Part shown: piece after piece, positions 2,768 through 25,653 of the stretch
Position numbering within the stretch: the stretch's first letter is position 1
How the letters are laid out: the number at the start of each line of letters is the position of its first letter
NCBI GenBank assembly: GCA_003139415.1
Contig: PLIR01000192.1
Location: forward strand, 3,787 to 49,529
DNA from: Myxococcales bacterium
GTDB taxonomy: Bacteria > Myxococcota_A > Polyangia > Polyangiales > Polyangiaceae
Length of the DNA: 45,743 nucleotides
Direction of reading: 5' to 3'
Notes under the pieces: generated by a model
What the model saw: the letters and a program-made list of their open reading frames with translations, nothing else
Databases searched by the model: none
What the model was told of the DNA's origin: nothing
Program-made: the position numbers and the translations under genes

Positions 2768-5698
2768 TTAACTAGCCTTGCTTCGCTTCGCCCCCGGAGT
2801 CGTGCGGGCGAGCACCTCGCGCAAGTAGCGCGCGGTGTGTGACCGCTCGACCTTGATGACTTCCTCGGGGGGGCCCGCCGCGACGACCTCGCCGCCGCCC
2901 TCGCCGCCCTCGGGGCCGAGGTCGAGCACCCAGTCCGCGCAGGCCACGACATCGAGGTTGTGTTCGATGACCACGATCGTGTTGCCCTGGTCGCGCAGGT
3001 CCGTCAGCGCGGTGAGCAGGATCTCGATGTCGGCGAAGTGCAGCCCCGTCGTGGGCTCGTCGAGCACGTAGAGCGTGCGGCCCGTGGCCTTGCGCGACAG
3101 CTCGCGTGCGAGCTTCACGCGCTGGGCTTCGCCCCCGGACAGAGTCGTCGCCGGTTGCCCCAGCGACACGTAGCCGAGGCCGACCTTGCGAAGCGCCTCG
3201 AGCTTGTCGGCGATCCGGGGCACGGCGCCGAAGAGCTCGGACGCCGCTTCGACGGTGACGCCCAGCGTGTCGGCGATCGAGAGTCCACGGTATTTCACCT
3301 CGAGCGTCTCGCGGTTGTACCGGAGGCCTGCGCACGCGTCGCAGGCGACGAAGACGTCGGGCAAAAAGTGCATCTCGACGCGAAGGACGCCGTCGCCCTG
3401 GCAGGCCTCGCACCGGCCGCCCTTGACGTTGAACGAGAACCGGCCGGCCTTGTAGCCGCGAGCACGCGCGTCCGGCAGCGCCGCGTAGAGATCGCGGAGC
3501 AGGGCGAAGATGCCCGTGTACGTGGCCGGATTGGAGCGGGGCGTCCGGCCGATCGGCGCCTGATCGATCGAGACGACCTTGTCGATGTGCTCCAGTCCTT
3601 CGACCCGGTCGCACTCGCCTACGGGGACCGTGGCGTTGTAGAGCTTCGCCCTCGCCGCCGGCAGCAGGGTATCGACGATCAAGCTCGACTTGCCGCTGCC
3701 GCTGACCCCCGTGACGCACGTGAACAAGCCCAGGGGGATCTCGGCCGACACGTCACGCAGGTTGTGCGCGCGCGCCCCTACGACGCGCACGCACGCCTTG
3801 GTGCGCGTCCTGCGCTTGGCCGGCACCGGGAGCTGCTTTTTCCCGTTGAGCCACGGCGCCGTGATCGAGCGCGGGTTCGCCATCAGCTCGGCCGGCGATC
3901 CCTGGGCGACGATCTCGCCGCCGTGCACGCCGGCGCCGGGCCCCATGTCGACGACGTGGTCGGCCGCGAGGATCGCTTCGCGGTCGTGCTCGACCACGAT
4001 GACGGTGTTGCCCAAGTCGCGCAGCCGGCCTTGTGCCTCGATGAGGCGCGCGTTGTCGCGGGCGTGAAGGCCGACGCTCGGCTCGTCGAGCACGTACAGG
4101 ACGCCCACGAGGGCGGCGCCGATCTGGGTGGCGAGCCGGATGCGCTGCCCCTCGCCCGACGAGAGCGTCTGCGCGCTGCGATCGAGCGCGAGGTAGTCCA
4201 ACCCGACGTCGATCAGGAAGCCGAGCCGCGCCGCGACCGCCTTGAGCAGCGGTTCGGCGATCGCGCGCTCGCGCGAGCCGAAGGCGTTCGCCTCGTCGGC
4301 TGCCCCGCCCAGCGTCTCGACGAAGTTCCGGACGTGTCGGAGCGGCATCGCTCCGATCTGCGCGACGTCTTTGCCCCCGAGCTTCACGGCCAGCGCTTCG
4401 GGGCGGAGGCGCTTGCCGTGGCAAGCGTCGCAGGTGCGGGTGACGAGGAAACGCCCCAGCTCGTCGTCGGCGATCCCTCCCTCGCCGGCCTCCGGGTCCT
4501 CGGCGTCGGCGGGTTCGACGCGTACGTCGGCCAGGGTGGCCAGGCGCCCTTCGAGCCGCGGCACGACGCCTTCGTAGCCTTTGCGCTTGGTGCCCTCCCG
4601 CTTGCGGTGCTCGCGCGGGGCACGCGCCGGACCTTCACCCGATCGGCCGCCCTTGCCGAAGAGGATCGCCTTGCGCTGCTCTTCCGGCAGCTTGCCCCAC
4701 GGGGCGTCCGGGTTCACGCCCAAAGTCTCGACGGCGGCGGAGACCTCGCCCGCCAGCGCGACGCTGCCGCGGCGGCCCCATGCGAGGACGACGCCCTCGC
4801 GCAGCGTATGCCGAGGGTCGCCCACGCAGCGCTCCGGGTCGACGACGTCGCGCGCGCCGAGACCGTCGCACGCGGGGCAAGCGCCGTGCGGTCCATTGAA
4901 CGAGAACATCCGCGGCTCGATGGGCGGGAGTGAGATCCCGCAGTCGACGCAGGCGAAGCGCTCGCTCATCCAGAACGGCTCGTCGTCGCCGGCCTGCACG
5001 AGGAGGCGTCCCTCGCCGAGCTTGAGCGCCAGCTCGACGCTGTCCGTCAGCCGCGCCTTGAGACCCTCCTTGAGGACGAGGCGATCGACGACGACGTCGA
5101 GGTCGTGCACCTTCGAACGATCGAGCTCGATCTCGTCTCCGAGGTCGACGACCGAGCCGTCGATGCGCGCGCGGACGAAGCCTTCCCGGCGCAGACGTTC
5201 GAGCTCGAGGCGGAGCTCGCCCTTTCGCGCCCGCGCGATCGGCGCGAGCAAGGACAGCCTCGTGCCCTCCGTCATCGAGAGAATCCGGTCGACGATCTGC
5301 TGGACCGTCTGCGCCTCGATGCGCTTTCCGCAGTTCGGGCAGTGGGGAATCCCCACGCGCGCATAGAGCAGGCGCAGGTAGTCGGCGATCTCGGTGACCG
5401 TGCCCACCGTGGATCGCGGCGACTTCGAGAGGGGCCGTTGCTCGATGGCGATGGCCGGGCTGAGGCCCTCGATGCGTTCGACGTCGGGCTTCGCCAGCTG
5501 CTCCAGGAACTGCCGTGCGTAGGCGCTGAGCGACTCGACGTAGCGGCGCTGCCCCTCGGCGTAGATCGTGTCGAAGGCGAGCGACGATTTGCCGGAGCCG
5601 CTCGGCCCCGTCAAAACGATGACCTTGCCCCGGGGCAAGCTCACACTGACGTTCTTCAGGTTGTGCTGCCGGGCGCCGATGACGACGAGACGATCCAC
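2768..5698 (-). CDS. uvrA: Excinuclease ABC subunit A (UvrA)
   Basis: There are two ABC ATPase modules ([10 protein letters not shown] and [11 protein letters not shown]alker A; LSGGEAQR / LSSGEGQR signatures; LDEPTTGLH / LDEPSVGLH Walker B) and Cys4 zinc modules (CPNCG, CVDCG..CPAC, CEAC..CDAC). I prefer the GTG start at 5698 because (V/M)[15 protein letters not shown] aligns with the E. coli N-terminus MDKIEVRGARTHNLKN. A TTG at 5704 is an alternative. The ORF extension to 5878 is rejected. Confidence 0.95.
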
Positions 5699-5776
5699 GG
5701 TCAAGATGGACCGGTTAGCACGAGAGGGCCGGCCCGCCGAGGCCGCATTGGGCCCATGTGATACCGTCAATTGCGG

Positions 5777-8700
5777 ATGTTCAAGGTCGAGTGCGAGTCG
5801 TGCAAATCGCCGTTTCAGATCGATGAGCGGCGGGTACCGCCCGCGGGTCTGAAGATGCGATGCCCGAAGTGCGGGCACTCCTTCCTCGTCACCACGCCGG
5901 TCACCACGCCGGCGATAGATTTGCCCGCGGCGAAGCCCACGGCCGCCCCGGTCAAGCCGGCGTTCACTCCCGCGGCGGCGCCGCCAATCGCGCCGCCCGC
6001 GCCGGCCGCCGCGTCACCTGCCTCGCCCCAGCGCCCCAAGTCGCCGCTGAGGTCGACGATGGTGGGAGTCGGGGCGGATCTCGGGGTGAAGCAGCCGCTC
6101 GTGCCGCCGACGCTCCAGGCGAAGCCCCCCGTTTTACCAAGGCCGATCAACGTGCCCGCGCCCGCTGAGGTGCACAACGCCGCGACCATCCCGGCCAAAC
6201 CTCCGCCGTCGCCGATGGCTGCCTTGAAGAGGACCATGATGGGCGTGGCCCCGGCGCCCCCCACGGCGTCCGGCGGTGCGCCGGCGGTCCCTCCCGCCAC
6301 GCCGCCCATCGCGCCCCCGGCCGTGGCGCGCCCGGCCCCGCCTCTTCCTCCCATGCGGCCCGAGCTCCCCTCGGACTTTCCGGCGTCGCTGGGCGGTCTC
6401 GACGAACCCGACCTTCCGGTCGTTTCGCCGCCCGCAAAGAAGGCGCCGCCGCCGGCCGTACCGCGAGCGGGCGTCGCGCCCGCCGGGGCGTCCCCTGCCG
6501 CGCCACCGACGGTCTCGCGGGGCCCGCAGCCGCCCGCCAAACCGACGCCGTCGTCGTCGCCCGTCGACGAACTCGACTTCGACCTTCCGGTCGTCTCCGC
6601 CGACTTGCCCGCGACGCGGGGCGCGCCTCCCCCGAAACGTCCTTTGCCCGGCCGACCGATGGACGCGGACCTCCCGGTGGCCGCGGCGGCGAAGGCTCCT
6701 CCGGCGGCGCCGAAGCCATTCGAGCAGGACCTTCCGGTGGTCGCCGCAGGGCCGAAGGCCAAGCTCACCCAGCCTTTCGAGATGGACCTTCCCGTGGCCG
6801 CGGGGCGCGGCGCCAAAGACCTCGACGCCGACCTTCCCATCGTGGCGCCTTCGCTGCCCGATGTCGCGCACTCGCTGCCTGCCGTCGCGCACTCGCTGCC
6901 CGCCGTCGCCGTCGACCTCCCGACGGCCAAGCGCAGGGGGACCTTCGACGACTTGCCCATCGTGTCGGCCGTCGGCTTGCCCTCGCCCGCGCAGCTGCTC
7001 CCCGACGTCGCCGCGTCGCTGCCGATCGCGGGCGGTCCCGCTCTCCCCGCGGTCGCCCACAACAACCTGCCCGTTGCTGCCGGGGGCATGGCGTTCGGGG
7101 AGATCGACCTGCCGACGCCGAACGAATCCGTGCCGCCAAGCTCCCCCCGGCAGCCCTCCGGTCGCCCCCCCAGCGACGAGTTCGCGCTCTTCGGGGACAT
7201 GGACCTGCCGCGCGAGATACCCGCGGGCGTGCCGGGTGCGGGCAAGAGCCAGCCCCCCATCGACCCGGCCGCGGACTTCGGCGACCTGCAGCTCGACGGG
7301 AAGCGCCGGTCGATCCGGCCGCCGACGGGCCGCGCATCCATCGTGCCGTCCCCGGAGCCCACCGGTGGCGCGGAGGTCACGAGGGACGACGGCGGCATGA
7401 GCTTCGGCGAGGTCGAGCTCGGAGGCGGCCACCCGGAGAGCGCCCCGGAGGTGCCTATCGGCACCGAGGCCGCGATCGGCACCGAGGCCGCCATCGGCGC
7501 CGAAGCGCGGATCAGCAGTTCGCCACCCCGGGGGCCGAAGCTCGACGTCGTGATGCCCGTGGCGGTCAAAGGCAAAGAACCACCCAAAGAAGAGACGCCT
7601 CGGCCACGGCGGACACTCGCCATCGGGATCGCGGTCGCCGTGTTCGTCGTCGTCCTCTTGGGCGGCGCCGCGCTGCAGGTCACCCCGTACGGCGCCTTCG
7701 GCTACCTGGTCATCAGCGACATGACTCGGGCCGGCGAGTACGCCAAGGTGACGGCCCAGGCCATCGGCGACGCGCGTGCGACGATGGCCTCCGACACCTT
7801 CGAGAGCGCGAAGAAGGCCGTCGAGGCCGTCGCCGCGGCGCACGCGCGCTTTCCGCGGGCCAATTCGCTCACCGCGGTTGCGGCGTTCGTCGACTACCAG
7901 GCGAACGTCCGCTTCGGGGGCGACACGGCGCGGGGCGCGCGAGCCAAGCAGTTGCTGACGACGCTGCCATCCAACCAGGTCGTCCCCTACGCCGACGCGG
8001 CGGCGGGCGCCCAGACGGCCGAGAGCGGGGAGCTGGATCGCGCGGGCAAGGAGCTCGACGCGGCCGCGCGCAACCCGGCCGACGCCGCGCTTCAGGGCGA
8101 GATCGCGCTGCTGCGCGGCGAGGTGGCGCTTTCCGCGGGCGACGGCGGCGCTGCCCTCGCGGCTTTCAAGCGCGCCCTCGGCCTGGGCGACGACGCGCGC
8201 GCTCACTTTGGCCTCGCGCGAGCCTACGACCTGATGCACGACGCGTCGGCCACTCAGCGCGAGATCGCCGCCACCCTCGCCAAGTCTCCGCAGCACGTGG
8301 GCGCGCTGACGCTCCGCGCGCGCCCGAGGAGCGGGCAGGTGGATGCGGCCGCGGCGGTCGCGGACCTGGCCGTCGTATTGGACGGTCCGGCTCGCGCCAA
8401 GGCGTCCCCCACGGAGCTCTCCGCGGCCTACGCAGCCAGGGCGTGGGTCAGCCTCGACAAGGGGGCCGCGAGCGACGCGCGCGACGCGTTCACGCAGGCG
8501 GTCACGCTCGACGCCCGCAACTTCGACGCGTTGAACGGCCAAGGGCGACTGTTCCTGAACGAGGGGCGGTACACCGAGGCCCTCGCCCGGTTCGACGCGG
8601 CGCTGCTCATCGATCCGAACTCCCCCGAGACGATCGCCAACGACGCCGAAGCGAAGCTCGCTCTCGAGCGGCTGGCCGACGCCAAGCAGCAGCTCGTCGC

Positions 8701-15007: not shown

Positions 15008-17443
15008 ATGTTTCTGCTTCGCCCGTTCAAAGGTCTTTCGGCACGCGACCGATTCGGTTCGCTCCTCTTGGTCGGCGCCCTGGGCCTCGTCGGTGGCGCC
15101 GCGGCGTGCGGTAGCTCGGGCTCCTCGTCGCAGGGCTTCTCCGACGTCAAGCCGGAGGCCGGAATTCCGGTCACGAGAGACAGCGGAACGAGCTTCGTCG
15201 TCACGCCGAGCGACGGGGGCTCGACCTCGACGGGGCCGGTCGTCGCGAGCGCCCTGGTGTTCGTTCCGCCGGCCACGACGATCACCGTCGACGGCGTGAC
15301 CCCTCAGACGACGACGTTCCAGCTCCAGGCCACGGTCAACGGCCAGACGGTCAGCGTGTCCCCGACGTCACTGCAGTTCGACCGGCCCGACCTCGGGTCG
15401 GCGACGATCGGGTCCCCCGTCTCGGTGACGGCCACGGGTACGTATGGCGGTACGGGGACTCTGCACGCGATCTTCGGCGGCCTCGAGGCCACGGCGACGC
15501 TCACGATCCAGGTCTTGGAGCGAGACCTCGGGACCACGTCGACGACGGTGGCCGCGGTGCTCGACAGCGCGGGACCCGCGGGGACCGACGCCGGGGCGAC
15601 GACTGGAGGCGACGGCGGGGCGACCACGGGAGCCGACGGCGGGGCGACGACTTCGACCGACGGCGGGGCGACGACGGTAACCGACGCGGGGACCACGGGA
15701 GCCGACGCGGCGACGATCGCGACGTCCGACCCGCTCGTCAAAAAGATCCTCTACCCGTACAACCAGACCGTCTTCCCGCTCGGCCTCACGGCCCCGATCG
15801 TGATGTGGACGGCGCCGACGGGCGGCTCGCACGCGAACGACGTCTATCGGCTCCAGCTCTCGGAAGCCAACTACACGTACGACGGGTACCAGACGACGCC
15901 CCTGCCGGCGACGAGCCCCAGCCCCTCCGCGGCGCAGTGGGCGATCGACCAGGGCGTGTGGGACCGCGTGACGGCGTCGAACCTCGGCCCCACCGACCCT
16001 CTGCAGGTCATCTTGTCTCGCTATGACGCCGGGACGATGACGGCGGCGGTCTCCGCGACGATGGCGTGGACCGTCGCACCGGCAAGCCTGCAGGGCGCCA
16101 TCTATTACTGGACCGCGTCGAAGCAGGAGGAAGAGGATGGAGGCATCCTCAGCACGGGTCACATCACGCGGATGGCGCCCGGCACCGGAGCCCAGCCCGT
16201 CCAGTTGAACTCCGGGCGCTGCATGGGTTGCCACGCGGTCAGCGCCGACGGAACCACCCTCGTCGCCGCGATCGACGACCCCGCTACGGCCCCGGCCGAC
16301 CCGCCTTATGTCCTCTCATGGCAGTCGCCAAACTACACCCGTCCGTGGGCCGTCTTCGACGTGAGTCAGCCCACGCCGACGGCCGGCTTCCAGTCGACCG
16401 AGTACGGCGCCGACATCGCCGTCACGCCCGACGGCACGTACACCGTCTGGGGCGCCCCCACCGACGTGCCAGGCTCGAAGGTGTTGTCGCTCAGCAGCAC
16501 GAGCACCGGCGCGCTCGTTGTAGACAGTGGACTCGACGAGCTGCTCGGACCGCTGGCTGGCGACGTACTTTCCATGCCGGCCTTCTCGTCGGACGGCACG
16601 ATGCTCGCCGCGGTGCAGAGCCCTTCTTCCAGCGACAACGTCCTGCCCGTCGACCCGAAGGCGATCGTCACCGTGACCTACTCGGCGAGCACGCAGACGT
16701 TCGGCAACACCCTGAACACCGTGGTCCTGGCCACCGATCCGGCGATCACGGCGGGAGAGACGGCCCTCGCCTATCCTTCGTTCACGCCCGACAGCAAGTA
16801 CATCGCGTTCCACGCGGGGACGTGGTCGACCGGTTGTCAGGGCTCCTGCGACGACACGACCCCGGACGACGGCCAGCTCTACATCGCACCCTTGAGCGAC
16901 GGCGGCGCCATCCGGCTCTCGGTCATCGACGACCCTCCGAACCCGAGCGACCAGAACGCGTCGGTCGAACCGACGTTCGACCCGAAGCCCGCCGGCGGCT
17001 ACTCGTGGGTCGTCTTCACGAGCCTGCGCGCCTGGGGGAACATGGGGTGGCCCGTGACGACAGGCGAGGACGCGGGGGCGAACGAGAACTTCAAGCGTCG
17101 GCTCTGGGTCGCCGCGATCGACTCGACCATCGGCACGGTCGACCCGAGCCACCCGCCCTTTTACCTGGCCGGGCAAGACAACACGCCCAACATGCGCGGC
17201 TTCTGGGCCAACGCGCAGTGCATCGCGACGCCGGTCGCGGGCCAGAGCGGCGGGGCATGCACGCAAGGCTTCCAGTGCTGCTCGGGGTTCTGCACGAACG
17301 GGACGTGCGCCAGCGTGAACACGCTGGCCTGCCAGTCGGTCGGCGGGACGTGCACTACAGCCACCGACTGCTGCAACGGCGGAACGGCCGTCTCTTGCAG
17401 CGCCGGCGGAGTGTGCACGATCAACGTCACCGTCGCCCAGTAA
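15008..17443 (+). CDS. Secreted lipoprotein: Thr/Gly repeat linker, single CxxCH motif, PD40/TolB-like beta-propeller-like region, two C-terminal C-C-CC-C-C modules
   Basis: The signal/lipobox is LLLVGALGLVGGAAAC. The DGGATTxx octapeptide is repeated 4-5 times. CMGCH lies at 16220-16234. Recurring S.DG..LA / TPDG motifs are present. The C-terminus reads CIATPVAGQSGGACTQGFQCCSGFCTNGTC and CQSVGGTCTTATDCCNGGTAVSCSAGGVC. Confidence 0.8.
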   Translation: MFLLRPFKGLSARDRFGSLLLVGALGLVGGAAACGSSGSSSQGFSDVKPEAGIPVTRDSGTSFVVTPSDGGSTSTGPVVASALVFVPPATTITVDGVTPQTTTFQLQATVNGQTVSVSPTSLQFDRPDLGSATIGSPVSVTATGTYGGTGTLHAIFGGLEATATLTIQVLERDLGTTSTTVAAVLDSAGPAGTDAGATTGGDGGATTGADGGATTSTDGGATTVTDAGTTGADAATIATSDPLVKKILYPYNQTVFPLGLTAPIVMWTAPTGGSHANDVYRLQLSEANYTYDGYQTTPLPATSPSPSAAQWAIDQGVWDRVTASNLGPTDPLQVILSRYDAGTMTAAVSATMAWTVAPASLQGAIYYWTASKQEEEDGGILSTGHITRMAPGTGAQPVQLNSGRCMGCHAVSADGTTLVAAIDDPATAPADPPYVLSWQSPNYTRPWAVFDVSQPTPTAGFQSTEYGADIAVTPDGTYTVWGAPTDVPGSKVLSLSSTSTGALVVDSGLDELLGPLAGDVLSMPAFSSDGTMLAAVQSPSSSDNVLPVDPKAIVTVTYSASTQTFGNTLNTVVLATDPAITAGETALAYPSFTPDSKYIAFHAGTWSTGCQGSCDDTTPDDGQLYIAPLSDGGAIRLSVIDDPPNPSDQNASVEPTFDPKPAGGYSWVVFTSLRAWGNMGWPVTTGEDAGANENFKRRLWVAAIDSTIGTVDPSHPPFYLAGQDNTPNMRGFWANAQCIATPVAGQSGGACTQGFQCCSGFCTNGTCASVNTLACQSVGGTCTTATDCCNGGTAVSCSAGGVCTINVTVAQ
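15587..15703 (+). repeat. In-frame 24-bp tandem repeat (about 4.9 units; encodes D[GA]GATTxx)
   Basis: Units start at 15587, 15611, 15635, 15659 and 15683 (gacggcggggcgacgac...). Confidence 0.85.
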
Positions 17444-17449
17444 GAGGGC

Positions 17450-18115
17450 TCACACCTTCATCGTCAGTTCGACGTCGTCGGCGAACGGGACGGAGAGGTA
17501 TCCGGAGCCGGGGGCGCGGACCTGCGCGAGGTAGTCGGGGCAAGCGTCGGCGTTGTCGGCGACGATGAAGGACCCGGGCCGCAGGCGCGGGGCCACGAGG
17601 CCGAGGATTCGCGCGTAAAGCGGCTTGTGGCCGTCGAGGAGCACGCCATCGATCGTGGCCGGAAGGTCGCGCGCCAGCGTCTCGAGCGCGTCGCCCTCGC
17701 GGATGTCGACGAGGTCGGCGAGCCCGGCCCTCGTGAGGTTGTCGCGCGCGCGAGCGAGCTTCGATGGCTCGAACTCGGTGCCGATGAGAGTGCCGCCCCC
17801 GTTGTCGCGCAGCGCCGCCGCCAGATGCACCGCGGAGATGCCGAACGAGGTCCCGAACTCGACGATGGCGCGGGCACCGTTGGCGCGGGCCAGCATGTAG
17901 AGCAGCGCACCCGTCGCGGGCGAGACGGCCATGTGGACGTCTTTGACCATCGAGAAGAACCTTCTGTAGTCGGCGTTGGGGTCGCTCATGCGCCGGACGC
18001 GCTCTTCGCGCGACATCGGGCCGAGCATCTCGCCCATCTTCTTCGTGGTCTGGGCCGCATCGGCAAAGAGCTGCGCGAGCAGCGGGGCGACGGGCGGGGA
18101 GTTCAGGGTGTTCAT
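17450..18115 (-). CDS. Class I SAM-dependent O-methyltransferase (family 3, caffeoyl-CoA OMT-like)
   Basis: Its length is 221 aa. The SAM motif is IVEFGTSFGISAVHLA. It also carries LIGTEFEP, DGVLLDG and FIVADNA. It is divergent from the Rieske-P450 gene. Confidence 0.8.
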   Translation of the reverse strand: MNTLNSPPVAPLLAQLFADAAQTTKKMGEMLGPMSREERVRRMSDPNADYRRFFSMVKDVHMAVSPATGALLYMLARANGARAIVEFGTSFGISAVHLAAALRDNGGGTLIGTEFEPSKLARARDNLTRAGLADLVDIREGDALETLARDLPATIDGVLLDGHKPLYARILGLVAPRLRPGSFIVADNADACPDYLAQVRAPGSGYLSVPFADDVELTMKV

Positions 18116-18200
18116 GGTCTCTCGCTATCGCGCAACGCGGCTCCGGCGTCCAGCAGGCACTGAACATCGGCTTCCGGCCCCAGCGCTCGGAAATCTTGGT

Positions 18201-20036
18201 ATGGCCGGGTCCGGCGCCCGCGTTAGGCTTCGCCGCATGGCTGCGCGCAACGTCGAACTCCACGCCAAGCCACGCTCCGACGCCACGGCGCCGGCGTGGT
18301 CGCGTGTCTCTCGGATCAGCGATCTCCGCGGCGACGGCCCGCATCCCATCTCCGCCGGCGGCACGGATCTGGTGCTGTTGCGGACACGTTCGGGCGTTCG
18401 CGTCTACGAAGGGCGGTGCCCCCACCAGGGCGCCCTGCTCGGCGAAGGCGAGATGGATGGCGAGACCCTCGTCTGCCGAAACCACCGCTGGCGATTCGAC
18501 GGCGAGACCGGTCGCCGCATCGGCAAGGGCACCGAGTGCCTCCGCGCGTGCCCCGTCGTCCAAGAAGGCGCGGACGTCCTCGTGGATATCTCGGGCCTGG
18601 CGGCGGCCTCGACCCCGGCCGCGGCGCCGGCACGCGCCCTCGACGACCTCCCCGGCCCGCGGGCCATCCCGATCTTCGGCAACGCCTTGCAGGTCGACCC
18701 GGAGCGTCTCCACGTAACGCTGGAACAGTGGGCCGAAAAGTACGGGCCGCTGTACCTGGCGCGCGTCGGTTCGCGCAAGATGCTCGTCGTCTCCGACGCA
18801 GAGCTCGTCGAGCCGATGTACCGCGCGCGCCCCGACATGTACCGGCGCCCGTCGGAGGTCGAGCCGATCTTCGAGGAGCTGGGGGTCTCGGGGGTGTTCT
18901 CGGCCGAGGGCGACGCATGGCGCGCGCAGCGGAGGCTGGCGATGGAGGCACTCTCGCTGCGCCACCTCCGGGGCTTTTACCCCACGCTCGCGCACGTCGC
19001 GCAGCGCCTCGTGCGACGGTGGAACGACGCGGCGGATGCCGGCCGCGAGCTCGACGTGGCCGACGAGCTCAAACGCTTCACGGTCGACGTCACGACGCAG
19101 CTCGTCTTCGGCCACGATCTCAACACGCTCGAGAAGGGGGACGAGCACATCATCCAGCGGCACCTCGAGCACATCTTTCCCGCCTTCGCCCGCCGGCTCA
19201 ACGCCATCGTCCCGTACTGGCGCTACTTTCGATTGCCCGTCGATCGACGCGTCGATCGCGCCGTGCAGGCCGTGTACGAGTGGCTCACGCTGGTCATCAC
19301 GCAGGCGCGCGCAGGCCTCGCGGCGGACCCGGCCCGCGCGGAGAACCCCACGAACTTCATCGAGGCGATGCTGGTCGCGCGCGACGCCGAGGGCCGCCCG
19401 TTCTCCGACGAGGTCATCTTCGGCAACGGGCTGACGATGCTGCTCGCGGGCGAAGACACGACGGCCTACACGCTCGCGTGGGCGGTGCATCACCTGTGTG
19501 ACGTGCCGCAGGCCGCCGCAGCGCTCCGCGAGGAGGCCGACGCCATCTTCTCCGCGAGCGACGTGCCGGCCGACATCGAACAGGCGAACCGCCTCGCTTA
19601 CGCCGCCGCGGTCGCCAACGAATCGATGCGGCTGCGGCCTGTCGCGCCGGCTCCCTTCTTCGAGCCCAAGGTCGACGTGGTGGTCGGCGGCGTCGCGGTG
19701 CCGAAGGGCACGATGATCGTCTCTCTCGCCCGGCGCGCGACGCTCGATCCGGCCCGCTTCGACAAGCCGCAAGACTTCGCGCCGGAGCGCTGGATCGAGG
19801 CGGGCGCGAACGGCAAGGCGCACGACGCGTCCGTTCACACGCCGTTCGGCTCCGGGCCTCGAATCTGCCCCGGGCGCTCGCTCGCGATCCTCGAGATGCG
19901 CGTCGCGCTCGCGGCCATCTACAAGAACTTCGACGTGGAGCGCGTGGGCGCGAGCGCCGACGTGCGCGAGCGGCTCGCGTTCACGCTCGGTCCGCTGGGT
20001 CTGCGCGTCAAAGTACGACGCCGCGTCCCGTCGTGA
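18201..20036 (+). CDS. Natural fusion: N-terminal Rieske [2Fe-2S] domain + cytochrome P450
   Basis: The Rieske ligands are CPHQG (Cys at 18417) and CRNHRW (Cys at 18474). An Ala/Pro linker follows. P450 motifs are the I-helix AGEDTT, the ExxR motif ESMRLRP, PERW, and the heme loop FGSGPRICPG (Cys at 19866-19868). The start is ATG 18201 or 18237. Confidence 0.9.
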   Translation: MAGSGARVRLRRMAARNVELHAKPRSDATAPAWSRVSRISDLRGDGPHPISAGGTDLVLLRTRSGVRVYEGRCPHQGALLGEGEMDGETLVCRNHRWRFDGETGRRIGKGTECLRACPVVQEGADVLVDISGLAAASTPAAAPARALDDLPGPRAIPIFGNALQVDPERLHVTLEQWAEKYGPLYLARVGSRKMLVVSDAELVEPMYRARPDMYRRPSEVEPIFEELGVSGVFSAEGDAWRAQRRLAMEALSLRHLRGFYPTLAHVAQRLVRRWNDAADAGRELDVADELKRFTVDVTTQLVFGHDLNTLEKGDEHIIQRHLEHIFPAFARRLNAIVPYWRYFRLPVDRRVDRAVQAVYEWLTLVITQARAGLAADPARAENPTNFIEAMLVARDAEGRPFSDEVIFGNGLTMLLAGEDTTAYTLAWAVHHLCDVPQAAAALREEADAIFSASDVPADIEQANRLAYAAAVANESMRLRPVAPAPFFEPKVDVVVGGVAVPKGTMIVSLARRATLDPARFDKPQDFAPERWIEAGANGKAHDASVHTPFGSGPRICPGRSLAILEMRVALAAIYKNFDVERVGASADVRERLAFTLGPLGLRVKVRRRVPS

Positions 20037-20154
20037 CGTCCGGCACGCCAACCGCGCCGCCCGCGCTCGCGATTGGACTGGCGCCCGAGGGCAAGCGTTT
20101 GGCGGCGCGGGTTAATCCGCGACGAACGGCGCCTGCTAGCTGTTCTCCACATCG

Positions 20155-21399
20155 ATGGAGCGCGTCGTCATCACTGGGATCGGGCTGGTCACTCCCGTCG
20201 GGGTAGGTACGCGTGAACCGTGGCGCGCGCTCCTCGGTGGCGAGAGCGGCATCGGCCCCATCAGCCGCTTCGATACCAAGGGCTTCCGGGCGCGCATCGC
20301 CGGCGAAGTGAAGGGCTGGGAGCCCACGCGCTGGGTCGAAAAGAAGCGCCTCAAGGAGATGGATCGGTTCACCGAGTTCGCCCTCGGCGCAGCGGCCCTC
20401 GCCGTGGCCGATGCCGGCCTCGAGCTGACCGAGGCCGAGCGCGCCCGCGCCGGGTGCTTCATCGGCGTCGGGCTTGGCGGCTTGCCAGCGCTCGAGCGGA
20501 CCAAGGAGACGCTCACCGCCAAGGGCCCAGAGAAGGTGAGCCCGTACACCATCCCGGCCATCATCTCGAACCTCGCGGCCGGCCAGGTCTCGATGGCCCA
20601 TCACCTCGAGGGGCCCAGCTACTGCATCACGAGCGCCTGCTCGAGCGGGGCGCACGCCGTGGGCGAGGCCGCGCAATGGATCCGCCTCGGCAAGGCCGAC
20701 GTCATGGTGGCCGGGGGCGCCGAGGCCACCGTGACGCCCGTCGGAATCGCCGGCTTCGAAGCCATGTACGCTCTCAGCCGCCGCAACGACGACCCGCAGC
20801 GAGCGAGCCGTCCCTTCGACCGCGATCGCGACGGCTTCGTCTGCGGAGAGGGCTCCGGGATCCTCGTGCTCGAGTCGCTGTCGCGCGCCTCCAGGCGAGG
20901 GGCCCGGATCTACGCCGAGGTCTCCGGCTACGGCGCGTCGAGCGACGCCCACCACATCACGCAGCCGGCCCCAGAACACCGCGGAGCCCAGCGAGCGATG
21001 CGCATGGCGCTCGAAGACGCGAAGATCGCCCCTGACGCCGTCGACTACGTCAACGCCCACGGGACCTCCACGCCCGTGGGCGACGTCGAGGAGTCGCGGG
21101 CCCTCGCCGCCGTCTTCGGCGCCCACGCGACCGACGGCAAGCTCTGGGTGAGCTCCACCAAGTCGATGATGGGGCATCTCCTCGGTGCAGCCGGCGCGGT
21201 CGAGACGGCCATCTGCGCCCTGGCGATCGCCGACGGCTGCGTCCCGCCGACCATCAACCTCGTCCACCCCGACCCGGAGTGCTCGCTCGATTACGTGGCG
21301 AACACGGCGCGCCGCCGGACCATCCGTCACGCGATGAACAACTCCTTCGGGTTCGGGGGTACGAACTGCGCGCTCGTCCTTTCGGGCCTCGGGACTTAA
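20155..21399 (+). CDS. fabF: Beta-ketoacyl-ACP synthase II (FabF/KAS II-type ketosynthase)
   Basis: The N-terminus is [16 protein letters not shown]. The active-site Cys lies in [11 protein letters not shown]. The His residues lie in [11 protein letters not shown] and [12 protein letters not shown]. Confidence 0.92.
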
Positions 21400-21412
21400 G
21401 GGACATCGCGCG

Positions 21413-22423
21413 ATGCCATCCAGCATGCCCTCGGCGCGCATTCTCGGCACGGGACGCTTCCTGCCGCCCGACGTGCGGACGAACCGCGACATCGAGCGCA
21501 TGGTCGAGACGTCCGACACCTGGATCGTCGAGCGCACCGGCATCCGAGAGCGGCGCATCGCGCCCGACGGAATGACGACGAGCGACATGGCGGCCGCCGG
21601 CGCCCGCGAGGCGCTCGACATGGCGGGCATACGCGCCGCGGACCTGGATCTCATCGTCCTGGCCACGGTGACGCCGGACATGCCGATGCCCTCGGGGGCC
21701 GCGATCGTCCAGGGCAAGCTCGGCGCCGGTCACTGCCCGGCGATCGACGTCGGCGCGGCCTGCGCGGGCTTCGTCTTCGCGCTCTCCGTGGGCGAACAGT
21801 TCATCCGGACGGGCAAGTATCGGACGGTGCTGGTCGTCGGCGCCGACACGCTTACGAAGTTCATCGACTGGACCGATCGCAAGACGTGCGTGCTCTTCGG
21901 CGACGGCGCCGGGGCCGTCGTGCTGGGGGCCGAGGCCGTCGCGAGCGATGGCGCGGTGACGCAGGGGATCCTGGCGACGTCGCTCTCCACCGACGGGACC
22001 CTCGCCCCTGCCCTCTACATCCCGGGCGGCGGCAGCGCACGGCCCCCTTCGGCGGCCACGGTCGACGAGCGACTGCACTTCATCCGCATGAACGGTCAGG
22101 AGATCTTCAAGCACGCGGTGAAGAACCTCGTGGCCGCGAGCCGGGCTGCACTGGGCGAAGCGGGGATGACCATGGCCTCGGTCGACTGGGTCTGCGCGCA
22201 CCAGGCGAACAAAAGGATCCTCGACCAGGTCGCGCTTCGCCTCGAGACGGCTCCGGACCGGATGCTGTGCAACATCGACCGGGTCGGCAATACGTCGAGC
22301 GCGTCCATCCCGATCCTGCTCGACGAGAGTGTTCGCGCGGGCACCGTCCGGACGGGCGACGTCGTGGTGATGAGCGCGCTCGGGGCCGGCATCTCGTGGG
22401 GCGGCGCCGTCGTGCGCATGTGA
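21413..22423 (+). CDS. fabH: Beta-ketoacyl-ACP synthase III (FabH/KAS III)
   Basis: The Cys-His-Asn triad sits in DVGAACAGFVFAL, CAHQANKRIL and RVGNTSSASIP. The gene starts 13 nt after fabF. Confidence 0.92.
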   Translation: MPSSMPSARILGTGRFLPPDVRTNRDIERMVETSDTWIVERTGIRERRIAPDGMTTSDMAAAGAREALDMAGIRAADLDLIVLATVTPDMPMPSGAAIVQGKLGAGHCPAIDVGAACAGFVFALSVGEQFIRTGKYRTVLVVGADTLTKFIDWTDRKTCVLFGDGAGAVVLGAEAVASDGAVTQGILATSLSTDGTLAPALYIPGGGSARPPSAATVDERLHFIRMNGQEIFKHAVKNLVAASRAALGEAGMTMASVDWVCAHQANKRILDQVALRLETAPDRMLCNIDRVGNTSSASIPILLDESVRAGTVRTGDVVVMSALGAGISWGGAVVRM

Positions 22424-22430
22424 GGGGACG

Positions 22431-23987
22431 ATGGAGGCGAGAGCAAAGCGAGATGATCTCATGAGCCGCGCGACCGACACTTTTCGATCGGAGACGGGCG
22501 CAAGGCCGATCAACACGGCCATCTTGCCCCGGCGGCTCGACGCCGTCGCGGAGAGCTCGCGGCGAGAGATCGCGCCCCCGGCCCGCCGGCTGGCGGCGCT
22601 GTTCGATGGCGGCAGCTACGAAGAGCTGGACGCGCTCGCCCATCACCGGGCCAGCCAGTGGGGCATGGCGGGCAAGCGCTTCGACGGCGACGGCGTCAGC
22701 GTGGCCACGGGTCGGGTGCACGGTCGCGCCGTGGTGGCCTTCGCGCAGGACCGCCGGTTCATGGGCGGCTCGCTCGGCGAGACGCACGCGGCCAAGATCT
22801 GCAAGGGGATGGACCTGGCCGAACGGCTGGGAGCGCCCCTGGTAGGCCTGCTCGATTCGGGCGGCGCGCGCATCCAAGAGGGCGCCGCGGCTCTCGCGGG
22901 CTACGGCGAGATCTTTCGTCGCAACGTGCGCCTCTCGGGACGCGTGCCTCAGATCTCGGTCGTCCTGGGCCCGTGCGCGGGCGGCGCGGTCTACTCGCCG
23001 GCCATCACCGACTTCATCGTCCTGTCCCGGCCCGACGCCCTGATGTTCGTGACCGGCCCGAAGGTCGTCAAACAGGTGATGTTCGAGGACGTCGACAGCG
23101 AAGGCCTCGGCGGCGCCAAGGTGCACGCCACGATGAGCGGCGTCGCCCATCTGGTCGAACCCGACGAAGCCTCGGCCATCGCCCGGGCACGAACGCTCCT
23201 CGCGTTCTTGCAGATCCCACGTGCGCCCTCGGCCGAGCCTGCGAACGACGCGCCCCTCGATACGCTGGTCCCGAAGAACTTCCGGCACCCCTACGACGTC
23301 CGGCGGGTGATCGATGCGCTCGCCGATCGGGGCTCGATCGTGGAGATCCAGCCCGACTACGCCAAGAACATCGTCGTCGCCCTCGCCCGCATCGACGGGC
23401 GCGCCGTCGGGATCGTGGCCAACCAGCCCAAAGAGCGCGCCGGGGTGCTCGACATCGATGCGTCGCGCAAGGCGGCGCGGTTCGTACGGACGATGAGCGC
23501 CTTCGGTATCCCGATCGTCTCGCTAGTGGACGTCCCCGGTTTCATGCCCGGCTCCCGGCAGGAGCACGGCGGCGTCATCGTGCACGGCGCCAAGCTGCTC
23601 TACGCATACTGCGAGGCGCGCGTGCCGCGCATCGCGCTCGTGACCCGCAAGGCTTTCGGCGGGGCGTACATCGTCATGTCGTCGAAGCACCTCGGCGCGG
23701 ACGTGAACCTCGCCTGGCCCGACGCCCAGATCTCGGTGATGGGGGCGGAAGGCGCCGTAGAGATTCTCCACGGCAAGGAGCTCAAGGCCGCGCCAGATCC
23801 GAGGGCGCGGTTCGACGAGCTCTGCGCGCGCTACCGGGAAGAGTACATGTCCGTCCGGGTCGCGGCCGAGCGCGGCTGGATTGACGAGGTTATCGACCCC
23901 CGTGACAGTCGGCGCAAAATCGCCCACTACCTAACCCTCTTCGACGCCGAGGGCCTCCGCGGAACCCACGGCAACATCCCCCTCTGA
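22431..23987 (+). CDS. Acyl-CoA carboxylase carboxyltransferase beta subunit (PccB/AccD5-like)
   Basis: Motifs seen are GRAVVAFAQDRRFMGGSLGE, DSGGARIQEG, IVANQP...GVLDIDASRKAARFVR and AFGGAYIVM. The gene starts 7 nt after fabH and a GAGGGG Shine-Dalgarno sequence lies upstream. No biotin carboxylase or BCCP gene is in the window. Confidence 0.88.
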   Translation: MEARAKRDDLMSRATDTFRSETGARPINTAILPRRLDAVAESSRREIAPPARRLAALFDGGSYEELDALAHHRASQWGMAGKRFDGDGVSVATGRVHGRAVVAFAQDRRFMGGSLGETHAAKICKGMDLAERLGAPLVGLLDSGGARIQEGAAALAGYGEIFRRNVRLSGRVPQISVVLGPCAGGAVYSPAITDFIVLSRPDALMFVTGPKVVKQVMFEDVDSEGLGGAKVHATMSGVAHLVEPDEASAIARARTLLAFLQIPRAPSAEPANDAPLDTLVPKNFRHPYDVRRVIDALADRGSIVEIQPDYAKNIVVALARIDGRAVGIVANQPKERAGVLDIDASRKAARFVRTMSAFGIPIVSLVDVPGFMPGSRQEHGGVIVHGAKLLYAYCEARVPRIALVTRKAFGGAYIVMSSKHLGADVNLAWPDAQISVMGAEGAVEILHGKELKAAPDPRARFDELCARYREEYMSVRVAAERGWIDEVIDPRDSRRKIAHYLTLFDAEGLRGTHGNIPL

Positions 23988-24013
23988 GCGGCCGCCGCCT
24001 TAGACCGCGAGTT

Positions 24014-25054
24014 CTAAGGCCGGTTGCCGCGCCGGTGCTCGCTCGGGGGCCGTCCCGTCCAGCGGCGGAACGCTCGCGTGAAGCTCGCGGCCCCGGAGAA
24101 GCCGAGGAGGTAGGCGATGTCCGTGATCGCGTGGCGCTCCTCGTTCAAGTACCCGAGCGCCAGTTCGTGCCGAGTGTCGTCGACGACCTTCGCGTAAGTC
24201 GTCGACTCGGCCGCCAGCCGACGCTGCAACGCCCGCGTGCTGGTCCCGAGGGCGCGGGCAATCGCGAGCTGGGACGGCGCACCGCTCGGCAGCCGGTTGG
24301 TGAGCACGACGCGGATGCAGTCGACGATGCGCGATCGGTCCCAGCGCTCGATGGCCTGGGCCGCCACGAGGTCGTTGACGCGCGCGAGCTCGGGGTTGGC
24401 GCCCGGGATGCGCCGATCGCACACTCGCCGCTCGACCGTGAGGGCGTTGATCGGAGCGTCGAACGTGATGGGCGCACGAAAGCACCGGTTGAAGGGCGAC
24501 GGATCGCGCGGCGACGGGCGGCGGAACTCGACCAGCAGGGGGGAGAACCGCCTGTCGGTGAGCGACCGGCAGAGGCGCACGGCGACCGCGAGCACCGCGT
24601 CGAGTGCCTCGGGCGCGACATGGTCTTCGCCCGTCACCGACACGCGGCACGTCTCACCGCGATCCTCGAACCGGATGGTCGCCCCGTTCGAGACGAGGCG
24701 GTAGTACCGGACGATCCGATCGAAGGCCTCGCGCAGGCTGCCGCTCGCCGTCAGCGAAAGGCCGAGCGCGTGAAACGTCGTCGGCGACGTGTGGCGGGCG
24801 ACTTCGACGCCGAAGCACGGGTCGGCCGTCGCCGCGACCGCGAGCTCCCACAGGCGCGTCTCGCCGCGAACGGGGTACCGTGCCTCGGGGTCGTTGAGCG
24901 CCCCGAAGTCGAGACCGGCCTGCGCGAACAGCGCTGGGGCGCTGACCCCGCGCGACTCGAGCGCCCGGGCGATCGCAAGGCCCCAGCTCGTGAGCGACGT
25001 CGGGTCCCGCGTCGGCGGAGTCGGTTCGAGCGCGAAGGAGGGTGCGGTCGACAT
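24014..25054 (-). CDS. AraC-family transcriptional regulator (AraC-type ligand-binding N-domain + C-terminal double HTH)
   Basis: The C-terminus reads LAIARALGTSTRALQRRLAAESTTYAKVVDDTRHELALGYL...ITDIAYLLGFSGAASFTRAFRRWTGRPP. The ATG is at 25054. Confidence 0.88.
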   Translation of the reverse strand: MSTAPSFALEPTPPTRDPTSLTSWGLAIARALESRGVSAPALFAQAGLDFGALNDPEARYPVRGETRLWELAVAATADPCFGVEVARHTSPTTFHALGLSLTASGSLREAFDRIVRYYRLVSNGATIRFEDRGETCRVSVTGEDHVAPEALDAVLAVAVRLCRSLTDRRFSPLLVEFRRPSPRDPSPFNRCFRAPITFDAPINALTVERRVCDRRIPGANPELARVNDLVAAQAIERWDRSRIVDCIRVVLTNRLPSGAPSQLAIARALGTSTRALQRRLAAESTTYAKVVDDTRHELALGYLNEERHAITDIAYLLGFSGAASFTRAFRRWTGRPPSEHRRGNRP

Positions 25055-25260
25055 GGCAACGGCGGGGACCAAGCTCAGTGTAGCCGCTGTTGGCGCGAAT
25101 TCCGTAGCGGAGGTCCGGCCGGGCCGCCGGGCCGACGGGTGCGTCGCGCCGCGCCCGCTGTCACGCGCGGTCCGAAGGAGCGCCGACGGAGAAGCGATTG
25201 GCGCCGCGGGGTAAGTCGCAACGGGGACCCGTGGATTATATCGCCTGCGTGAGGTTCAGC

Positions 25261-25518
25261 ATGGCCAAGGACATCCCGAGCGAAGTGCGTCGAATCATCA
25301 AAGAGCAACTCGACGTCGACGAAGCGGCAATCAAACCCGAGTCGAGCTTCATCGACGACCTCGGCGCCGACTCCCTCGGCCTCGTCGAGCTCGTGCTGGC
25401 GCTCGAGGGCGCCTTCGGTATCGACATCCCGGACACGGAGACCGAGAAGATTCGTACGGTCAAGGACGCCATCCAGTACATCGAGCAGCACGTGCAGGCC
25501 GAAGCGCCAGCAGCCTGA
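25261..25518 (+). CDS. Acyl carrier protein (stand-alone, 85 aa)
   Basis: The phosphopantetheine attachment motif is [19 protein letters not shown] sequence lies 7 nt upstream of the ATG. The gene is divergent from the AraC gene. Confidence 0.9.
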
Positions 25519-25653
25519 ACTCGAAGCCAGGGGTATCCGAGCCAGCAGCTGGGCTCAACGGCCTGATTACCCCGGTTGGCCCAAGGCCTTCCCATCAAAG
25601 CGCTTCGTTTGTCAGCGCTGCTCGCGGCCGCTCGGGGTAGATCTCCCGACGTC

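Follow-up and report, generated by a model that had tools for sequence, protein, structure and literature searches.

FapR of Bacillus subtilis, a DeoR-type repressor which senses malonyl-CoA and binds an inverted repeat, acts through one operator type that lies before fabH/fabF, plsC and other lipid-synthesis genes, and in this way initiation, elongation and acyl transfer are co-regulated. The mycobacterial fasII operon is controlled by a TetR-type regulator, MabR. In Mycobacterium tuberculosis, kasB is located upstream of accD6 within this operon (PMC4014462). RedP, RedR and RedQ, a beta-ketoacyl-ACP synthase III (KAS III), a KAS II and a dedicated acyl carrier protein (ACP) from undecylprodiginine biosynthesis in Streptomyces coelicolor, build chains on the special ACP by way of the housekeeping FabG and other enzymes that make up the type II system for fatty acid synthesis (FAS-II) (PMC12654105). 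Among the acyl-CoA carboxyltransferases of the same organism, swapping a single position, D422 in PccB and I420 in AccB, shifts specificity between propionyl-CoA only and acetyl-, propionyl- and butyryl-CoA, and specificity does not depend on this residue alone (PMC7835884). Here we describe a locus from an uncultured Myxococcales bacterium (assembly GCA_003139415.1, contig PLIR01000192.1, positions 3,787 to 49,529), the analysed stretch of 45,743 nucleotides being referred to as the window. It carries fabF, fabH and a carboxyltransferase (CT) gene in a row, together with an AraC-family regulator and a stand-alone ACP. These five genes are the functional unit, and not the seven-gene block which they form with a cytochrome P450 and an O-methyltransferase (OMT). 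With a probability of roughly 0.5, this unit is an AraC-type-controlled accessory regulon for FAS-II initiation and elongation and for malonyl-CoA supply, which feeds membrane lipids and borrows FabD, FabG, FabZ and FabI from the housekeeping set.

The window belongs to a metagenome scaffold of 95 kb and has a GC content of about 70%; genes were picked by third-position GC in combination with domain searches. An earlier note on this DNA had listed seven genes with intact KAS II and KAS III motifs, an ACP with a DSL serine and spacers of 13 nt and 7 nt, and all of this was confirmed by Pfam and NCBIfam searches and by motif inspection. The genes, and the two copies of a 29-nt box discussed below, are:

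17450..18115, minus strand: OMT, Methyltransf_24, O-methyltransferase family 3, catechol/CCoAOMT-like
18237..20036, plus strand: Rieske [2Fe-2S]-cytochrome P450 fusion, 599 aa, with a Rieske and a P450 domain
20089..20117, plus strand: box copy 1, GGGCAAGCGTTTGGCGGCGCGGGTTAATC, between the P450 stop and fabF, ending 37 nt before the fabF ATG; a putative operator abutting the promoter
20155..21399, plus strand: fabF, beta-ketoacyl-ACP synthase II, 414 aa, TIGR03150 equivalog at 602 bits (cutoff 494)
21413..22423, plus strand: fabH, beta-ketoacyl-ACP synthase III, 336 aa, TIGR00747 at 383 bits (cutoff 292)
22431..23987, plus strand: AccB/PccB-type acyl-CoA CT beta subunit, 518 aa, Carboxyl_trans PF01039, E = 2e-157
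24014..25054, minus strand: AraC-family regulator, 346 aa, Arabinose_bd and HTH_18 domains
25188..25216, plus strand: box copy 2, GGAGAAGCGATTGGCGCCGCGGGGTAAGT, in the divergent intergenic region between AraC and ACP, ending 44 nt before the ACP ATG
25261..25518, plus strand: stand-alone non-canonical ACP, 85 aa, TIGR00517 at 99 (cutoff 70)

The Cys/His/His motifs of FabF are complete, with ACSSG providing the Cys at residue 161, HGTST located at 302 and the third motif at 336-340, and so are the Cys/His/Asn motifs of FabH (AACAGF, HQAN, GNTSSAS). In the ACP, DSL is at residue 37, the serine being Ser38. The spacers between fabF and fabH (13 nt) and between fabH and CT (7 nt) are exact, while the gap between P450 and fabF is 118 nt. 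The true start of the Rieske-P450 fusion is the ATG at 18237 and not 17976; its motifs comprise CPH...CRNH in the Rieske domain, AGEDT in the I-helix and the heme loop FGSGPRICPG. The closest PDB matches of the OMT are cation-dependent family-3/catechol OMTs. Genes for FabD, FabG, FabZ, FabI and biotin carboxylase/biotin carboxyl carrier protein (BCCP) are absent from the 45.7-kb window, as judged from Pfam scans of the neighbours, the gene list and tblastn with myxobacterial FabD and FabG. The absence of the four fab genes, which the earlier note had reported for the block and its immediate neighbours, thus extends to the whole window.

The same gene arrangement is found in at least five contigs from different samples, all of which are about 100% identical and hence represent one species. 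Informative comparisons come from a lineage of uncultured, Polyangiaceae-like soil and peat myxobacteria, which we call lineage W. A FabH scan with one genome per species returned 80 loci. In this set, fabF-fabH-CT occurs only in L009 and L010, and all others show the canonical order in which fabH is followed by about 3 kb with fabD and fabG and then by acpP and fabF. This canonical order, found in about 50 related genomes, bears out the claim that the block, lacking fabD and fabG, differs from the housekeeping fab cluster. Additional members of lineage W were added by CT- and ACP-based searches:

L133: fabF-fabH-CT
L093: fabF-fabH-plsC-X-CT
L089 and L095-L099: plsC-CT
L130: AraC divergent from ACP-CT-fadB followed by two acyl-CoA dehydrogenase genes
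L134: CT, then 3.5 kb of other genes, then divergent AraC/ACP
L131: ACP-AraC, located on the 3.55-Mb contig that also carries the L133 block, 25 kb away from it

The combination fabF-fabH-CT thus recurs in L009, L010/L092, L133 and L093, with identities of 85-90% for FabF, 77-83% for FabH and 77-82% for CT. The fabF-fabH linkage is scattered over the CT tree and must therefore be old within lineage W. In each of the four loci for which DNA is available (window, L130, L131, L134), an AraC orthologue (64-71% identity) immediately adjoins a non-canonical ACP, and in three of these the CT gene is at most 5 kb away, the distance being 25 kb in the fourth. In L130 the ACP and CT genes are translationally coupled, and in L009 an AraC orthologue is found 4 kb upstream of fabF. 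Neither FabD, the malonyl-CoA:ACP transacylase, nor FabG is encoded at any of the lineage-W loci.

A second, paralogous AraC next to the module was observed in L009 (1-5992) and L091 (1760-2980); it shares 27-35% identity with the first one, along with the architecture of Arabinose_bd and HTH_18 domains. L009 carries a third AraC copy at the locus edge.

Several further genes accompany the module in relatives. One recurring partner is a PlsC-type 1-acylglycerol-3-phosphate acyltransferase, which passes TIGR00530. Others are a long-chain-fatty-acid-CoA ligase, which neighbours the module in L009 and passes NF006181, outer-membrane channels of the FadL/MetA type, and acyl-CoA dehydrogenases that occur together with a FadB/FadJ-like enzyme. 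FadL/MetA-type channels and long-chain acyl-CoA ligase are found close to the module in L089 and L009.

The earlier note had taken all seven genes as one dedicated pathway, in which a KAS II/KAS III/ACP/CT-derived acyl or short polyketide chain is hydroxylated by the P450 and methylated by the OMT under AraC control. The genes are indeed adjacent, only 118 nt and no predicted terminator separate P450 and fabF, the arrangement is identical in the at least five contigs mentioned above, and the P450 domain resembles CYP102/CYP97/CYP3A, of which CYP102/CYP97-type enzymes hydroxylate fatty acids and carotenoids. However, these contigs come from a single species, and it is only in them, at about 100% identity, that the OMT adjoins the block. 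Neither P450 nor OMT is present at any other fabF-fabH-CT, plsC-CT or CT-AraC-ACP locus (L009, L010, L093, L133, L130, L134, L089). What lies upstream of fabF differs in every genome: the window has the P450, L009 has long-chain acyl-CoA ligase, L010 has a protein with EGF repeats, and L133 has small unknown open reading frames. Homologues of the Rieske-P450 fusion with 83, 68 and 60% identity have unrelated neighbours which differ from genome to genome, and lack fab genes and OMT; the 83% identical one is flanked by a zinc-ribbon protein on one side and an aldo-keto reductase on the other. The OMT belongs to the catechol/CCoAOMT type, and the window has no thioesterase, cyclase, chain length factor (CLF) or other release or tailoring gene. 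We consider a tailoring cluster of seven genes quite improbable. The P450 and the OMT are chance neighbours and not module members, their adjacency being species-specific.

A synteny search across related genomes, which had been proposed for the seven-gene block, did not retrieve it as a conserved unit, since only fabF-fabH-CT and AraC-ACP recur. Of the proposed dedicated pathway, the association with AraC and the non-canonical nature of ACP and CT have held up, while the P450 and the OMT as partners have not.

The Rieske-P450 family itself is large, with more than 2,000 matches; nearly all of the best 120 carry both domains, and named members are from Labilithrix and Polyangium metagenome-assembled genomes (MAGs). 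The limited literature searched contained no relevant paper on Rieske-P450 fusions, nor on myxobacterial fabF/fabH paralogs. The fusion may represent a P450 class which has not been described so far and which brings along its own electron carrier of Rieske type.

A statistically strong link between the two transcription units is the 29-nt box. Its consensus, GGnnAAGCGtTTGGCGC-N5-GGnnAAG, contains a pair of GGnnAAG half-sites, 21 bp apart, on either side of a TTGGCGC core. It is found on the coding strand just 5' of fabF in four genomes (window, L009, L010, L133), and just 5' of the ACP gene likewise in four (window, L130, L131, L134); in 12 other loci it lies upstream of ACP, plsC or CT. A matrix was built from eight seed sites, which score 23-31 bits when left out one at a time, and was used to scan 1.68 Mb of related loci at a threshold of 21 bits. 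This returned 17 sites (8 seed sites and 9 independent ones) compared to about 0.05 expected from shuffles, 20 block-shuffles having yielded 0-1 matches each. Eight of the nine independent matches are on the coding strand directly 5' of plsC or CT genes from lineage W.

In the window, the matrix scan detected no box upstream of P450 or OMT. As the box precedes only fabF and ACP, the shared control element excludes these two genes, and its position between P450 and fabF, past the P450 stop, gives the fab operon a control region of its own, which is a further argument against a common seven-gene pathway. A direct repeat with a period of 21 bp is a geometry typical of AraC-family binding, and together with the linked AraC gene this makes the AraC regulator the likely binding protein. 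The assignment is circumstantial, since L089 and L010 lack an adjacent AraC.

Other interpretations of the box were tried and rejected. TGGCGC resembles the -24 element of a sigma-54 promoter, but TTGC at the -12 spacing is missing in all eight sites. With TTGGCG taken as the -35 hexamer of a sigma-70 promoter, there is nothing like a -10 hexamer 17 nt downstream. A weak CTAGCT/GATAGC about 18 nt past the second half-site may tentatively be assigned as -10, which would put the box at about -60 to -32. A promoter and terminator scan of positions 17300-25800 predicted neither.

A variant of the box, GGAAAAGCGTTTTGCGC...GGCGACTT, was observed 5' of a different CT in genomes with a canonical cluster (L040 at about 3807, L054 at about 7538, L065 at about 5247, minus strand). 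This CT is 38-40% identical to that of the window and has a C-terminus like the beta subunit of methylcrotonyl-CoA carboxylase (MCC), ...RKRGVIPV. In Polyangiaceae, the box may therefore be characteristic of a broader regulon for carboxylase or lipid genes.

An alternative to an accessory set is that the block represents relocated primary FAS-II genes. The ancestral fabH-fabD-fabG-acpP-fabF cluster would have been broken up, the fabF and fabH of the block would be the sole copies, and they would be in an operon with the beta subunit of the main acetyl-CoA carboxylase, much like kasA-kasB-accD6 of mycobacteria. In this case, the box would be the operator of the lineage's global lipid-synthesis regulator, with a regulon of acc, acp, fabH, fabF and plsC and thus of FapR-like composition. 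This main alternative is possible though doubtful in our view. The individual block proteins differ in how they relate to the canonical ones.

Among canonical AcpPs of the family, identities are 87-99%, also in cases where FabF has no more than 74-91%. The AraC-linked ACPs reach 73-82% when compared with canonical AcpPs, a range which also applies to the window ACP, and only 78-85% among themselves, at CT identities of 79-83%. They have lost acidic residues of helices II and III that are invariant in canonical AcpPs, the canonical FEEAFEIDIPDEDTEK being changed in the window, and the window ACP is on a long branch outside the canonical AcpPs. Such an ACP evolves far faster than any canonical AcpP and has lost acidic residues for partner recognition, which would be unlikely for the sole, essential AcpP of a cell. 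Both ACP and CT belong to non-canonical subfamilies that are restricted to the lineage.

ACP clusters P0156 and P0158 were found to combine an invariant canonical AcpP core with the C-terminal sequence of AraC-linked ACPs (...ADAIRYIEQYAAA, as in L134). From their sequences they resemble either intermediate forms or the outcome of gene conversion between the two types of ACP.

The synthases give a mixed picture. In trees calculated by neighbour joining, the FabH of the block groups with those from L009 and L010 in a clade on a long branch outside all canonical FabHs, the clade of canonical sequences having 96% bootstrap support. FabF, in contrast, is nested inside the canonical FabFs as sister to one subgroup (65-68% support) and is 80% identical to the canonical FabFs of the nearest group. 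A ketosynthase (KS) phylogeny, suggested earlier as a check for a specialised pathway, therefore sets apart FabH only, and both proteins match the models of fatty acid synthesis rather than those of polyketide synthase (PKS) or DarB. The incongruent placement of the two synthases, and the fact that three essential genes would have had to be relocated separately, are difficult to reconcile with a relocated primary cluster. The same is true for several lineage-W genomes (L134, L089, L130) which have CT-AraC-ACP or plsC-CT without fabF-fabH nearby.

Several observations are in favour of relocation or weigh against accessory copies. FabF, FabH and ACP each exceed the cutoffs of housekeeping models at equivalog or subfamily level, and FabF branches with its canonical counterparts at the identity given above. 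FabF and FabH evolve within the lineage at about the canonical rate, as essential genes would, and their linkage is old. The regulon members (CT, ACP, fabF, fabH, plsC) correspond to control points of membrane lipid synthesis, and a KAS gene followed by accD6 within a fasII operon is documented (PMC4014462). No genome has been shown to contain both the module and a canonical fab cluster. From the block-bearing representative MAGs L009 and L010, no second FabH locus was recovered in a scan which leaned on one peptide motif and on MAG completeness, and no member of the CT subfamily occurs on contigs with a canonical cluster, among them those of the complete genomes L029, L042 and L056. Module and canonical cluster could thus be mutually exclusive. 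Further points against the accessory regulon as proposed are that no promoter or terminator is predicted, read-through from P450 into fabF being possible, and that AraC is not adjacent at two of the loci.

The missing second FabH in L009 and L010 is given little weight, since 80 of the 81 recovered FabHs were found via the single motif TVTPDMPM, and the result depends on MAG completeness. For the same reason we have rejected it as proof of a sole copy. Also rejected was P0133/L136, the best-matching canonical AcpP on a long contig, as the canonical cluster of lineage W; it is from a different organism with 59% GC and is uninformative on lineage W. This relative was observed to have fabD-fabG-acpP-fabF (L136, 8080-11493) without fabH upstream, so that even clusters of the canonical type do not have fabH at a constant place.

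The CT also bears on function. Its best PDB matches are beta subunits of propionyl-CoA carboxylase (PCC) and acetyl-CoA carboxylase (ACC), with E-values of about 1e-150. Its subfamily contains 57 clusters with identities of at least 62%, beyond which identity is 59% or less (Bradymonadales and others). The fall from 67% or more to 59% or less is not bridged by any named Polyangiaceae sequence. In the motif GGAYIVM, Ile occupies the position of D422 in S. coelicolor PccB (ScPccB), and it does so in all 57 clusters. The best partial PDB matches, including 1xnw, all read Ile there as well. We take 1xnw to be the D422I mutant of PccB, and 1xnw and the 6ybq/8pn7 series to be engineered PCC variants with Asp exchanged for Ile. 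From this residue, the CT is predicted to accept acetyl-CoA and make malonyl-CoA, with the alpha subunit encoded elsewhere, as no biotin carboxylase or BCCP gene is found in the window or the related loci.

The CT could instead be the beta subunit of a propionyl-CoA or other acyl-CoA carboxylase in the degradation of fatty acids or branched chains, its linkage to fab genes being incidental. Its top PDB matches carry the annotation PCC beta, and in L130 ACP-CT is followed by the FadB/FadJ-like enzyme and two acyl-CoA dehydrogenases. FadL/MetA-type channels and a long-chain acyl-CoA ligase lie near the module in L089 and L009, and the box variant precedes the MCC-beta-like CT in canonical loci. 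However, Ile replaces the Asp that is conserved in propionyl-CoA-carboxylating enzymes, most loci have CT in close linkage with either fabH, at a 7-nt spacing, or plsC, beta-oxidation has no use for an ACP, and methylmalonyl-CoA mutase and epimerase are not encoded nearby. A catabolic role is therefore very unlikely.

If the module is an accessory regulon, the AraC-type regulator would bind the 29-nt box and turn on the fabF and ACP units together. The CT would pair with a housekeeping biotin carboxylase/BCCP subunit and raise the supply of malonyl-CoA, while FabH would initiate acyl chains and FabF would extend them with the dedicated ACP as carrier. Housekeeping FabD, FabG, FabZ and FabI would take care of malonyl transfer and of the reductive cycle, a proposal based on the absence of these genes at every locus. 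The product would probably be ordinary long-chain acyl-ACP, to be used for membrane glycerolipids; this is suggested by the PlsC-type lysophosphatidic acid acyltransferase which is inserted in the operon of relatives, and by the neighbouring FadD, FadL and FadB genes. PlsC, long-chain ligase and FadB/acyl-CoA dehydrogenase partners indicate ordinary fatty-acid and phospholipid metabolism and not a tailored, polyketide-like product. An oxygenated or O-methylated acyl or polyketide-like lipid, as the earlier note had envisaged, is thus unsupported: P450 and OMT are not conserved, the box excludes both, and the partners are of lipid type.

The pairing of a private ACP, AraC and an AccB-like CT might also reflect new biochemistry or signalling. 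The CT might carboxylate acetyl- or acyl-ACP directly, resulting in malonyl-ACP without FabD, or AraC might sense the acylation state of the ACP and act as a lipid-status switch. We regard this as very improbable.

CHASE3-GAF sensor proteins were observed just 3' of the module in two genomes (window 25654-28569, L010 16246-18579), that of the window being a hybrid histidine kinase and that of L010 a REC-CHASE3-HAMP-GAF-GGDEF protein. This could be a coincidence or a second regulatory input. Two genes in the flanks of the window are unrelated to the module: a UvrA-paralog-like ABC ATPase (UvrA_inter, UvrA_DNA-bind) at 2768-5878 on the minus strand, and a Coq4-family protein beside a TetR regulator at 32217-32939 on the plus strand.

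If the module is indeed accessory, uncultured soil and peat myxobacteria have a switchable second FAS-II entry set with its own ACP and malonyl-CoA supply under one operator, a compact and testable example of how membrane-lipid output is controlled in bacteria with large genomes. If it has been relocated, it represents a rare break-up of an otherwise very stable fab cluster, in combination with an AraC-type global lipid regulator. Under either reading, the locus is not to be counted as a new natural-product biosynthetic gene cluster (BGC). For genome mining, the lesson is that adjacency to P450 and OMT is species-specific here. The statistically strong shared operator makes the locus experimentally tractable.

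Among described systems, type II PKS and dialkylresorcinol synthesis are the least similar. FabF fails the polyketide KS model NF005490 (269, cutoff 445), and domain scans of the window detected a single KS only, without CLF, cyclase or ketoreductase. FabH fails the DarB/StlD dialkylresorcinol models (NF005293, 57 with a cutoff of 450; NF053539, 49 with a cutoff of 550). With a canonical FAS-II cluster the locus shares the matches to the FabF, FabH and AcpP models, but not the gene order with fabD and fabG and not the level of AcpP conservation.

As in RedP/RedR/RedQ, FabH and FabF homologues occur with a dedicated ACP and without reductase and dehydratase genes of the reductive cycle. However, the Red genes are part of a large BGC with RedJ, RedL and RedK, while the module has no conserved context of release and tailoring enzymes and its neighbours differ per genome. 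Its partners are CT, AraC and, in relatives, PlsC, and its enzymes still pass the housekeeping FabF/FabH models. In M. tuberculosis fasII (fabD-acpM-kasA-kasB-accD6), KAS genes are likewise followed in the same operon by a PccB-family CT which is thought to supply malonyl-CoA, and AccD6 is among the PDB matches of the window CT (E = 1.6e-108). The mycobacterial operon, which is essential and serves mycolate precursors, has fabD and acpM and two enzymes of KAS I/II type but no FabH; the module, by contrast, has KAS II and KAS III, no fabD, a separate ACP unit and an AraC-type regulator.

The window CT has the Carboxyl_trans fold of S. coelicolor AccB and Ile at the I420 position (D422 in ScPccB), but it has no nearby gene for an alpha (biotin carboxylase-BCCP) or epsilon subunit, and its specificity is a prediction. 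One box type before lipid-synthesis genes is reminiscent of the FapR regulon. Unlike the FapR operator, the box is a direct repeat with 21-bp spacing and is AraC-linked, and its regulon additionally includes CT and ACP. In summary, the locus is a variant of an already known type, with dedicated or re-wired FAS-II entry enzymes and a private ACP.

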